Made by a program: the position numbers and the translations under genes. Shown one piece after another: positions 8,379 to 11,244 of a DNA stretch of 64,000 nt; position 1 is the first letter of the stretch, and each line of letters opens with the position of its first letter. The stretch is taken from IMG/VR virus record IMGVR_UViG_3300025519_000001, positions 64,001 through 128,000 of that record; one strand, written 5' to 3'. This DNA is from a virus. The notes under the pieces were generated by a model. It did no database searches and had not been told where the DNA came from. It saw only the letters and a program-made list of their open reading frames with translations.

Positions 8379-8400
8379 ATGCTAATATTCAAACTTTAAA

Positions 8401-8443
8401 GTGCGAATCCCAAGCGAACATAAAAACTCTAGGAGATTCGCAC
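8401..8443 (+). promoter_or_regulatory. CRISPR leader inverted-repeat motif, type I-C-like (copy 1)
   Basis: gtgcgaatc-N25-gattcgcac; near-identical copy at 10500-10542. Confidence 0.7.
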
Positions 8444-8452
8444 CAAATTTAC

Positions 8453-8622
8453 AGGGCGACTCGGCGTCCAAAATCGAGAAAGCATGTGAATTTACATATG
8501 ATTTACCTATTTCACATGCACTCGATAACGTATCTATATTTTAAAATGTGCTTATAGATACGACCATTCTCGTTTTTATAGGAGAATGCACTTTGTGCGA
8601 ATAAATATGCACACTTTTTGCT
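8453..8622 (+). ncRNA. Cas12f tracrRNA (copy 1)
   Basis: gggcg-actcgg-cgtcc hairpin, atcgag..ctcgat stem, two more stems, anti-repeat cactttgtgcgaat (8589-8602); architecture matches my recollection of the As/OsCas12f1 tracrRNAs. Confidence 0.8.
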
Positions 8623-8835
8623 GTTGCAATTCGCACATGCACATAAAGTGTGAGAAGGGAGACTAAGGCTAAAGTCTTTGCTAGGCTAGTTGCAATTCGC
8701 ACATGCACATAAAGTGTGAGAATGGGAGAATGTAGATCGTGACTCTGCCTTATAGTTGCAATTCGCACATGCACATAAAGTGTGAGCTAGATCGACTATA
8801 TATGCGGAGCTTAAAAATTATTGCAATTCGCACAT
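8623..8835 (+). CRISPR. CRISPR mini-array: 3 identical 32-nt repeats, a degenerate 4th, and 3 spacers (34, 34, 33 nt)
   Basis: GTTGCAATTCGCACATGCACATAAAGTGTGAG at 8623-8654, 8689-8720 and 8755-8786; partial repeat at 8820-8835. Confidence 0.95.
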
Positions 8836-8850
8836 ATATAATGTTAAAAT
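8821..8850 (+). promoter_or_regulatory. Putative cas12f promoter overlapping the terminal repeat
   Basis: TTGCAA-18 bp-TAAAAT with an extended TG; RBS gagggg follows, then ATG at 8868. Confidence 0.5.
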
Positions 8851-8867
8851 AATGAGGGGTTTTATAT

Positions 8868-10478
8868 ATGCCTAAAAAAGAAAAAGATGATAATAAGATT
8901 GTGAAAATTGTAAAAGTAGAGATTGATAGGATTGTTGGAATAAAAGAAGATCATTTTAATGTTATAGCAAAAAAACTTCAAAGCGAATCTCTTGATATGC
9001 GAAATCAATTTATCGCAGAGTTATGGAAGTGGAATAATTTTGAAGATGACTATAAAACAAGATACTACTCTAATCCAGATACAAAGGAATATTTATTTAA
9101 TAAAAAGAAAGGGAGTCCATATGGATCAATAAGGGGGTATGCTGAGGACGTAGTGAAAGAAAATAAAATATCGTATTCTGGTATAATTAGTGCAAACACA
9201 AATAAAGCTCTTAGTAGATGGAATAAATTCTTAAAAGATCGCGAAAACTATAGAGAAGGAAAATATCCAGCAATACCATGTTTTACAAGACCAGAAATTC
9301 TATTTCGTGCTTCTGATACAGAGATAATTAAGAAAGATGCAAAATATGAATGCAAATTACCTTTACTTGGTAGAGATGGAGTTAAAATTGCTGATCTTCT
9401 AGTTAAAAAATATGAAGAAGAAAAACGCACTGAAAAACTAAGAAGAGAAGAATTAAAAAAAGAATATAAGAATCTTGAAGAAAAAGGCGTAGAAATAACC
9501 AAAGAAATTAAAGATAAACTGTGGATTAAAGTTAAAAATAAAATTAAAGAAAAGAGTGAAGAAGAACTTAAAAATGATGAACCGATTATCACCTCTAGTA
9601 GCTATCAAGCTATTTTGAAACTATCTGATACATATGATAATACAACAATCATAAACAGAATTATTAATGGCGAATATAAAATGGGTGAAAGCAGTTTACG
9701 AAAATTAAAAAACAAATGGATACTATTTATCACATACAGTTTTGAAAAGCAGTCAAAGGGGCTTGATCCAAATATAATTTTGGGTGTAGATATAGGAGTT
9801 AATGATCCAGCACATATGATAGTTTATGATTCCAATAATAAAAAATGGGGGAAAAAGAAATGGATTGATGGTAAAGAAATCGAAGCGTTTCGTAAGAAAC
9901 GTGATGTTATGAAGAGATCAATACAAAAACAAGCTGCTTATTGTGGAGAAGGAAGAAGAGGACATGGGAGGAAAACAAGAATGAATGCGGTTGAAAAGAT
10001 TGATGGAATGATTAAGAGATTTAAAAATACATGCAACCATAAATATTCTAGATTTATTGTTGATTTTGCTTTAAAAAACAATTGTGGAGTAATTCAGATG
10101 GAAAACTTATCAGGAATTGCTGATGGAGAAAAGAAAGCAACATTCTTGGGTGATTGGACTTTTTATGATTTGCAACAAAAAATAAAATATAAAGCTGATG
10201 AAGTTGGAATTAAAGTTATATTTATTAAACCAAATCACACGTCTGCAAGGTGTAGTAATTGTGGTTTCATTCATGATAATAAATTAAAAGATATTTGGAG
10301 ACCAGAAACAAAACAATTCAAATGTATGAAGTGTGACTATGGACATAGGCGATTTGTCCACGCAGATGATAATGCAGCTAGGAATATTTCGCTTCCAGAT
10401 ATCGAAAATATTATCGAAGAACAACTAGACCTCCAAAACAAAGAAGCAAAACATGCATTAAAGTATATTGCAGAATAA
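8868..10478 (+). CDS. cas12f: Type V-F Cas12f1 (AsCas12f1-like, TnpB-derived) RNA-guided nuclease, 536 aa
   Basis: RuvC-I GVDIG (D308), RuvC-II QMENL (E412), CSNC..CMKC zinc finger, RuvC-III HADDNAARNI (D500), GRRGHGR and WTFYDLQQKIKYKA blocks; adjacent to array and tracrRNA. Confidence 0.9.
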   Translation: MPKKEKDDNKIVKIVKVEIDRIVGIKEDHFNVIAKKLQSESLDMRNQFIAELWKWNNFEDDYKTRYYSNPDTKEYLFNKKKGSPYGSIRGYAEDVVKENKISYSGIISANTNKALSRWNKFLKDRENYREGKYPAIPCFTRPEILFRASDTEIIKKDAKYECKLPLLGRDGVKIADLLVKKYEEEKRTEKLRREELKKEYKNLEEKGVEITKEIKDKLWIKVKNKIKEKSEEELKNDEPIITSSSYQAILKLSDTYDNTTIINRIINGEYKMGESSLRKLKNKWILFITYSFEKQSKGLDPNIILGVDIGVNDPAHMIVYDSNNKKWGKKKWIDGKEIEAFRKKRDVMKRSIQKQAAYCGEGRRGHGRKTRMNAVEKIDGMIKRFKNTCNHKYSRFIVDFALKNNCGVIQMENLSGIADGEKKATFLGDWTFYDLQQKIKYKADEVGIKVIFIKPNHTSARCSNCGFIHDNKLKDIWRPETKQFKCMKCDYGHRRFVHADDNAARNISLPDIENIIEEQLDLQNKEAKHALKYIAE

Positions 10479-10499
10479 ACTTTTTATACATTCTCTCTG

Positions 10500-10542
10500 G
10501 TGCGAATCCCAAGTTCACATAAAATCCCTAGAAGATTCGCAC
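10500..10542 (+). promoter_or_regulatory. CRISPR leader inverted-repeat motif, type I-C-like (copy 2)
   Basis: gtgcgaatcccaagttcacataaaatccctagaagattcgcac. Confidence 0.7.
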
Positions 10543-10558
10543 TTCTAATAAACATTAA

Positions 10559-10811
10559 GGGGCGACTCGGTAGAATGGAACATCTTAGTCAGTCATCCGT
10601 CCTAAATCGAGATAGTGCGGTTATACATATTTAACTTAACCGTTCACACTCGATAAGGTATCCCGAAAGGGTGAAACCCTACTCACAAAATCCGAGTAGG
10701 CACTTCATACAGAATATTTATGTATATTTATTCACACTTTCCGCAGTTGCAATTTATATGTACGTATGAAGTGTGAGAAAATACTAGATTAAGTCTTGTT
10801 ATGAAATTAGC
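10559..10811 (+). ncRNA. Second tracrRNA fused to a single variant repeat (10746-10777) and flanking guide (natural sgRNA/omegaRNA-like)
   Basis: Same stems as copy 1; anti-repeat cacttcatac (10701-10710) is perfectly complementary to gtatgaagtg in the variant repeat GTTGCAATTTATATGTACGTATGAAGTGTGAG. Confidence 0.8.
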
Positions 10812-10953
10812 TAAAGATATTACTTCGGCTCTGATTGAGCGATTCCCCCTAGAGTATGAAAAAGAAAATATTAAAATAAAAAATATTAAAGATAAAGATT
10901 TGGTTAAACGAATTAAAAAGAAAGGGTTAAGCGTAGAGTTGATCACAAAATAA
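10777..10953 (+). pseudogene. 5'-truncated ORF remnant or small ORF (..MKLAKDITSALIERFPLEYEKE..ELITK*)
   Basis: Open frame starts at the repeat 3' end; the ATG at 10801 has no RBS. Confidence 0.45.
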
Positions 10954-10956
10954 AAC

Positions 10957-10974
10957 ATGAAAGATGCATTTCAT
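10957..10974. repeat. ATGAAA-N6-TTTCAT dyad at the right border of the CRISPR cassette
   Basis: atgaaa-gatgca-tttcat. Confidence 0.65.
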
Positions 10975-11070
10975 TAAATGATGTGATGAAGCTTGAGAAT
11001 AAAAGTTATTGTTACAATTGAACTATTAAAATAAAAAATATCAAGATAATTCGAGAGGAGTATAAACAAA

Positions 11071-11244
11071 ATGGATAAATACTCTCACTTAGACAAGGAA
11101 TATCTCGAATACTTAAAGGAGGGCTACTCTCAAAGATACATAGATCCAGACGATCCTTGGTTTACGGACTATGAACTTGAAGATAAGTACCTAGACGGAT
11201 ATGGCTTTGAAAATAAAAATAAAATAATACATAAAGGAGAGTAA
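11071..11244 (+). CDS. Small acidic hypothetical protein (57 aa, not in the ORF track)
   Basis: gaggag RBS; MDKYSHLDKEYLEYLKEGY...HKGE*. Confidence 0.6.
   Translation: MDKYSHLDKEYLEYLKEGYSQRYIDPDDPWFTDYELEDKYLDGYGFENKNKIIHKGE

Follow-up and report, generated by a model that had tools for sequence, protein, structure and literature searches.

A phage-borne Cas12f array joined base-exactly to the remnant of its putative target gene yyaC

Introduction

Downstream of a cas12f gene in a phage genome stands a single CRISPR-type repeat, and directly at its end a short open frame begins. This raises the question of what the frame is and how it came to lie in the position of a spacer. The window analysed here is a stretch of 64,000 nucleotides, bases 64001–128000 of a 154,759-bp IMG/VR virus record that is estimated to be 96% complete; positions are those of the window and all features of the locus lie on the plus strand. 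A preliminary description of this DNA had seen a homing-like configuration, with the repeat as the end of a TnpB-like module and the frame as the stump of an interrupted gene serving as guide. TnpB and the omegaRNA of IS200/IS605 elements have been described (PMC8612924), as has selfish spread by cleavage and recombination (10.1101/2023.11.30.569447). We show below that the frame is the remnant of a yyaC gene and that the junction arose by deletion, and we discuss how this deletion might have been formed.

Results

The cas12f gene (8868–10478, 536 aa, catalytic residues kept) is accompanied by a scaffold and an array on each side. Upstream, the tracrRNA-like scaffold A (8399–8621) with stem 1, stems 2–3, an anti-repeat and a hairpin plus T-run is followed by array A (8623–8835), which contains three full 32-nt repeats (starting at 8623, 8689 and 8755), three 34-nt spacers and a fourth repeat (8821–8835) that is truncated and lacks the 3´ handle. 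Downstream, the tracrRNA-like scaffold B (10498–10745), recognised by alignment with scaffold A and with the loci L003, L004 and L005, precedes its cognate repeat B (10746–10777), one full repeat that constitutes array B without a separate spacer. The adjoining spacer-length flank, which would act as guide (10778–10811, first 20 nt 10778–10797), is identical to the yyaC protospacer of the sister phage L047 and differs from that of L045 at a single base. It forms the beginning of a pseudogene remnant (10778–10953), the 3´ stump of a yyaC/DUF1256 spore-protease gene with codons 182–239 of the 239-aa gene.

Pfam and structure matches identify the nuclease: it matches the Pfam family Cas12f1-like_TNB (E 5.6e-17), and its closest solved relatives are the AsCas12f entries 8j3r, 8j12 and 7wju (E about 1e-65). 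The RuvC motifs GVDIG, IQMENL and ADDNAARN and the zinc ribbon CxxC...CxxC align with AsCas12f, and both the RuvC D-E-D triad and the zinc ribbon characteristic of the Cas12f/TnpB fold are intact; the protein also matches the NCBIfam entry guided_TnpB. To judge from these matches, the phage carries a type V-F (Cas12f) CRISPR system, for which RNA-guided, PAM-dependent cleavage of dsDNA is predicted. Neither cas1 nor cas2 is present in the phage genome, and the ORF list contains no transposase-like gene adjoining the Cas12f locus. A single-sequence query of IMG/VR returned no near Cas12f relative. The Cas12f of L003 is 52% identical, and a 44%-identical relative has its Cas12f locus close to DHFR, suggesting long residence. 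A Lys/Glu-rich segment (window 9240–9640, residues about 125–258) has no counterpart in the AsCas12f alignment and makes up most of the additional length of the 536-aa protein.

Scaffold B is 78% identical to scaffold A, with one insertion. In the five modules compared, stem 1, stem 2 and stem 3 are kept through compensatory changes. The anti-repeat of module A, CACTTTGTG, pairs with CATAAAGTG; that of module B, CACTTCATAC (10701–10710), is perfectly complementary to GTATGAAGTG of repeat B; and corresponding pairs of anti-repeat and repeat are present in L003–L005. The complementarity between anti-repeat and repeat that is expected of a tracrRNA is therefore found in silico for modules A and B as well as for L003–L005. 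When every scaffold was matched with every repeat by RNAduplex, cognate and non-cognate pairs could not be told apart, since the repeats have their 3´ ends in common; the argument for pairing rests on the specific compensatory positions. Both scaffolds look functional. Repeat B shares 23 of its 32 positions with the three repeats of array A, is identical to them at both ends and, unlike the truncated last repeat of array A, retains the full 3´ handle.

A terminator-like hairpin is located in scaffold A at 8594–8613; together with CTTTTTGCT it forms the end of this scaffold (8594–8622) and scores as a terminator. At the corresponding end of scaffold B (10720–10745), the T-run is broken (CTTTCCGCA). 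Read-through from scaffold B into repeat B may generate a natural single-guide transcript. The 3´ part of scaffold B is 100% identical in L047, one of the sister phages described below.

No additional copy of repeat B was found in the whole 154,759-bp genome at up to 9 mismatches, in agreement with the preliminary description, according to which no second repeat follows. In the sister strain represented by the ENA contig L040, repeat B is followed by a 33-nt spacer, a second repeat B and then the same flank as in the window, and in L047 two copies of repeat B surround a different spacer of 33–34 nt. Three near relatives thus have no spacer (window), one spacer (L040) and one different spacer (L047) in array B, next to the three spacers of array A in the window. 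In L003, scaffold, repeat, a 34-nt spacer and a degenerate terminal repeat are all located downstream of cas12f, and in L004 scaffolds flank cas12f on both sides. We regard the downstream unit as an old, conserved CRISPR module and not as a transposon end. The fact that L040 has the same junction and one additional spacer suggests that the seemingly orphan repeat is a live minimal array; it is the only repeat remaining in array B, and this minimal array is predicted to be still active.

The search for targets of the other spacers was negative. No target was found for the spacers of array A; GenBank phages contain no protospacer for array A or for the L040 spacer, and the spacers match neither the phage's own genome nor any fetched locus. 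Exact scans of IMG/VR with four spacers and the repeat family and scans of JGI metagenomes for repeat B gave no match, and GTDB genomes yielded four single chance matches to the repeat pattern only and no host array. Spacers 1 and 2 of array A (window 8655–8820) both start with an RBS-like sequence (AAGGGAGA and AATGGGAGA), and TAGATCG, with related bases after it, is common to spacers 2 and 3; spacers with such common starts may be directed against homologous sites in variant genomes. One metagenomic contig (L008, 98.5% identical) corresponds to window 8821–10777 and breaks exactly at both positions. Since it starts at the truncated last repeat of array A and stops at the end of repeat B, it suggests that the spacer content of both arrays is polymorphic within the sample from which it comes.

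The frame behind repeat B opens at 10777, just past a TGA (10774–10776) within the repeat, has an ATG at 10801 and stops at 10951–10953, shortly before a dyad of the form ATGAAA-N6-TTTCAT (10957–10974). No Shine-Dalgarno sequence precedes ATG 10801, and strong ones are found at neighbouring genes. The junction between repeat and flank is present in an independent Logan contig (L041, 100% identical over 8,388 bp) and in identical form in L040, which rules out an assembly artefact. The 58 translated codons of the stump, compared with 1.8 billion representatives in a full HMMER search, matched P0097 (a 128-aa fragment, 61% identity, E 1.3e-10) and P0099 (221 aa), both of which align through the seven codons NTRLSLV upstream of ATG 10801. 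When the search was limited to longer proteins, P0100 (187 aa) matched with 98% identity over the whole query (E 4.7e-25), and P0102 (239 aa), a member of the same cluster, agrees with the stump at every residue. The family is DUF1256/spore protease YyaC (P0099: PF06866, E 1.4e-51; P0102: TIGR02841, 169 bits).

By these matches we identify the frame as the C-terminal 57 codons or so of YyaC and not as a chance ORF. ATG 10801 is then an internal methionine of YyaC, which explains why an RBS is absent. The preliminary description had placed the start of the frame at the repeat end, without RBS, and its stop just before the dyad at 10957, and had taken the flank for the stump of a longer gene. 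The coordinates confirm the former, and the YyaC matches, which include the codons before the ATG, establish the latter: the ORF of 50 aa is not complete in itself, being the C-terminus of the 239-aa YyaC. Other pieces of yyaC were not found in the phage genome; the first 544 nt of the gene are absent, not displaced. An apparent tblastn extension of P0097 upstream of the junction runs across a stop codon with only about 4 of 22 residues identical, and was dismissed as a chance alignment.

Neither the locus nor the stump had a DNA or protein match among GenBank phages, and a scan of JGI metagenomes for yyaC relatives gave no match. Two related, complete phages with terminal repeats (L043 and L044, 164 and 167 kb) encode an intact 221-aa yyaC, located in a region of partial synteny, and no Cas12f homologue. 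The presence of yyaC without Cas12f in these phages indicates that yyaC is an old gene of the phage group, independent of the CRISPR module. Phages found via a 728-aa kinase/phosphatase/ligase gene were too distant for a comparison of synteny.

Intact yyaC alleles of sister phages are known from short metagenomic contigs (L047, 1,360 bp; L045, 766 bp, about 2x coverage). L047:1–127 is 100% identical to window 10652–10778, comprising the end of scaffold B and repeat B. After this first repeat B, the order in L047 is spacer, second repeat B, a 51-nt trailer and the complete yyaC (244–963); the trailer includes an RBS and the 3´ end of a repeat in degenerate form. L047:788–1020 matches window 10778–11010 at 97%, and L045 matches window 10778–11128 at 99.4%. 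In the yyaC genes of both contigs, homology to the window starts at 10778, the first base past the repeat, and GGTTCTTC (i.e. TTC) is located directly 5´ of the guide-matching AAAATACTAG. The junction is exact on both sides, the last repeat base being G10777 where the gene has C, and the intact alleles reading GGTTCTTC followed by AAAAT. The first 20 nt of the guide match at 20/20 positions in L047 and at 19/20 in L045. The dyad also follows the intact yyaC in L045 and L047 and is present in L040; it is thus native to the 3´ end of the intact gene.

The single guide mismatch in L045 is at guide position 5 (window 10782). It is a synonymous T/C change, and at all other positions of the 176-nt stump L045 and the window agree. 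This change could be an escape mutation; however, with two differences between L045 and the window in 351 nt, the chance that one falls within the 20-nt guide is about 11%, which makes this reading statistically indistinguishable from chance.

Since L047 has scaffold B and repeat B upstream of a whole yyaC, the arrangement in the window is a deletion of 595 bp and not an insertion. It reaches from the last base of the repeat to nt 544 (codon 182) of yyaC and is found in the window genome and in L040. This comparison makes yyaC the native right-hand neighbour of array B. The homing-like interpretation of the preliminary description can therefore be kept in part: the gene stump, the intact alleles and a T-rich motif directly 5´ of the junction in these alleles (TTC in L047 and L045) were all found as expected, but an inserted module was not, as the module in L047 stands beside the intact gene. 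The proposed spread of the module was not borne out either, since the target phages already carry the Cas12f module.

A chance origin of both endpoints is unlikely. TTC precedes 12 of the 720 positions in yyaC and TTN 65 of the 720, and the repeat ends are two of about 150 possible left breakpoints; by our own estimate the joint chance of both endpoints is about 2e-4 (TTC) to 1e-3 (any TTN). No microhomology is present at the junction.

The region downstream of yyaC is a mosaic between strains. Past window 11010, about 55 bp beyond the yyaC stop, L040 (from 353) and L047 (from 1020) diverge fully from the window and carry a different small gene on the opposite strand in place of the 57-aa gene at 11071.

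The phage group also contains a genuine TnpB element. A second TnpB gene (354 aa) is located about 3 kb before the window start (L002:1081–2274, genome 59896–61089), and its presumed omegaRNA/right end of about 130 nt finishes with GAGTGTCAA(C). An exact look-up of its protein gave no match. L045 has this TnpB right end, with 95% identity over 82 nt, directly against yyaC at about codon 71, and in the uninterrupted yyaC of L047 the sequence GTTTAC lies directly before the TnpB flank site. From its sequence context, we interpret the 354-aa TnpB as a mobile IS in the classical arrangement of TAM and guide, located at different sites in sister phages. An insertion of 13.7 kb between the TnpB right end and the stump, considered because L045:1–82 matches 13.7 kb upstream, was rejected, as L047 points to a mobile IS.

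Discussion

In the phage analysed here, the last repeat of a Cas12f array is followed, exactly to the base, by a sequence that is adjacent to a PAM-like motif in the intact gene. That this sequence was once a spacer is the simplest process that would generate such a junction. We consider it probable that array B took up a yyaC spacer and that recombination between spacer and protospacer deleted the interval. The ancestor would have been organised like L047, with repeat, spacer, repeat and the 51-nt trailer directly upstream of an intact yyaC. Array B would then have gained a yyaC spacer of roughly 34 nt from beside TTC, the source being the phage's own copy or a near-identical sibling. Spacer and protospacer would have formed 34-bp direct repeats a few hundred bases apart on one molecule, and self-targeting by Cas12f and/or homologous recombination (single-strand annealing) would have removed the interval. 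In the expected product, a repeat passes without any intervening base into the protospacer and the yyaC sequence behind it. As the repeat replaces TTC in this product and the PAM is lost, the phage would be protected from its own guide. The predicted intermediate, in which a yyaC spacer stands between two repeats, was not found, nor was a protospacer for any other spacer of this Cas12f system.

Since cas1 and cas2 are absent, spacers would have to be acquired by host machinery that samples phage DNA, and self-derived spacers are then likely. Cas12f enzymes use T-rich or C-rich 5´ PAMs (10.1101/2025.08.14.670346), and type I-C adaptation modules have TTC as their canonical PAM for spacer acquisition (PMC5602111). 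TTC is thus plausible as PAM of the present Cas12f by analogy, and a link to type I-C adaptation modules is a lead rather than a result.

Several other explanations have to be weighed against this proposal. A chance illegitimate deletion from the last base of the repeat to just 3´ of TTC would leave a guide without spacer history or function. Deletions are common in phage accessory regions, the downstream region is a mosaic between strains and the L047 trailer already resembles the scar of an earlier internal array deletion; on the other hand, the joint endpoint probability (about 2e-4 to 1e-3), the lack of microhomology and the sharing of the junction by strains that otherwise differ by about 2% make this course unlikely. 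The exact junction at the repeat end and the TTC would likewise be explained by an aberrant adaptation event, in which a long phage DNA end, trimmed at TTC by host Cas1-Cas2(-Cas4), was joined as a half-site to repeat B, while homologous recombination with the 3´ part of the resident yyaC resolved the other end, without a 34-nt intermediate. A phage without adaptation genes of its own fits this scenario, but it requires an unusual reaction and the sister arrays show ordinary spacer-sized units, so that we give it little probability.

The model of the preliminary description, an IS605/TnpB-like module that inserted in yyaC with the repeat as right end and homes by its flank guide, correctly places the guide in the flank and a T-rich motif directly 5´ in the empty allele, and in L045 a true TnpB element of the same phage group sits inside yyaC in exactly this arrangement. 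We nevertheless consider it very improbable for the Cas12f module: this module adjoins an intact gene in L047 and hence is no insertion, the first 544 nt of yyaC are lost from the genome and not displaced, the arrays of L040 and L047 contain spacers between repeats, L003 ends in a degenerate terminal repeat and not in a transposon end, and the position near DHFR in the 44%-identical relative suggests long residence. Just as little can be said for a regulatory role, in which the terminal crRNA would be partly complementary to a phage or host promoter, like tracr-L or CRISPR-derived regulatory RNAs. The arrangement next to cas12f, one repeat that has a scaffold of its own, does resemble known autoregulatory mini-arrays, but elsewhere in the genome the guide matches nothing better than 16-mers with 2–3 mismatches in unrelated places, and the deletion fully explains why the guide derives from yyaC; such a role is highly unlikely.

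Transcription through repeat B would generate a crRNA with the stump as guide, and this crRNA together with Cas12f and tracrRNA B would cut the intact yyaC of co-infecting siblings. Siblings of the L047 type occur together with deletion-type strains in samples of one kind. We infer that the terminal crRNA targets siblings with intact yyaC, which would result in their exclusion or in a drive-like conversion. In L047, the full terminal repeat is likewise followed by a trailer that is not a spacer; a crRNA that reads the flank would therefore be a general by-product and need not be selected.

It is possible, though in our view doubtful, that the deletion allele is a natural, self-made CRISPR drive, in which a cut sibling is repaired from the deletion allele and the same guide is created anew. 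The siblings would share both flanks needed for this, the Cas12f module on the left and the yyaC 3´ end on the right. If so, every self-derived spacer with such a resolution would turn into an allele that spreads, and the synonymous change at guide position 5 in L045 would be an escape mutation. In synthetic CRISPR homing gene drives, nuclease, guide and disrupted target are found at one locus and the wild-type allele is cleavable. The locus described here is similar in that both flanks are shared and repair would copy the disrupted allele, but its origin would be natural and accidental, and the item predicted to be copied is a guide-creating deletion of 595 bp instead of a cassette.

Spacer-protospacer recombination as proposed here has reportedly been observed between staphylococcal phages and host CRISPR loci by Varble et al. 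(2019, in Nat Microbiol), where the host array is said to recombine with the infecting phage, leading to transduction of CRISPR loci. In both cases a spacer of roughly 30 nt would provide the homology and target-flanking DNA is placed directly after a repeat; here, however, the event would have occurred in cis or between sibling phages, in a phage-borne array, and resulted in a short deletion.

The locus is also similar to the virus-borne mini-arrays described by Medvedeva et al. in 2019 (PMC6858448), whose targets in siblings are located close to the array, with the carrier's own locus mutated or deleted; the proximity of spacer and target was left unexplained. As in these mini-arrays, 0–2 spacers are present, spacers turn over between sisters, the targets are in near relatives and close to the array, and self-targeting is avoided because the orthologous site of the carrier is deleted or mutated: the guide matches L047 (20/20, with TTC) and L045 (19/20), and the carrier's copy lacks the motif. 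Unlike mini-arrays that borrow host Cas proteins, the virus supplies its own Cas12f effector and two tracrRNAs, and the would-be spacer runs on without a break into what is left of its target gene. This continuity offers a mechanism for the proximity of spacer and target in the earlier study.

With TnpB/omegaRNA systems the locus shares a TnpB-related protein, a scaffold RNA followed by a guide from adjoining DNA and an unoccupied allele that consists of motif and target; it differs in having no transposon ends or insertion, a scaffold split into tracrRNA and repeat, an uptake of spacers and an origin by deletion. Its effector belongs with the AsCas12f clade (8j12, 8j3r, 7wju), to which the C-terminal RuvC/zinc-ribbon half aligns over 262 residues (E about 1e-60), and like AsCas12f (10.1101/2025.08.14.670346) it would be tracrRNA-dependent with a long structured scaffold. 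Unlike AsCas12f, it has 536 aa with a long Lys/Glu-rich insertion, is phage-encoded, is flanked by two scaffold-plus-array units and comes without adaptation genes. It thus represents a compact Cas12f with two orthogonal-looking pairs of tracrRNA and repeat and a likely TTC PAM.

Together with the ancestral allele, the locus provides a base-exact natural case that is best read as a phage-borne array having recombined with its own target. It points to a cost for phage arrays that rely on host adaptation enzymes, namely that self-derived spacers are acquired. The resulting allele is a candidate case of sibling phages that compete by CRISPR or convert each other's alleles in a drive-like manner.
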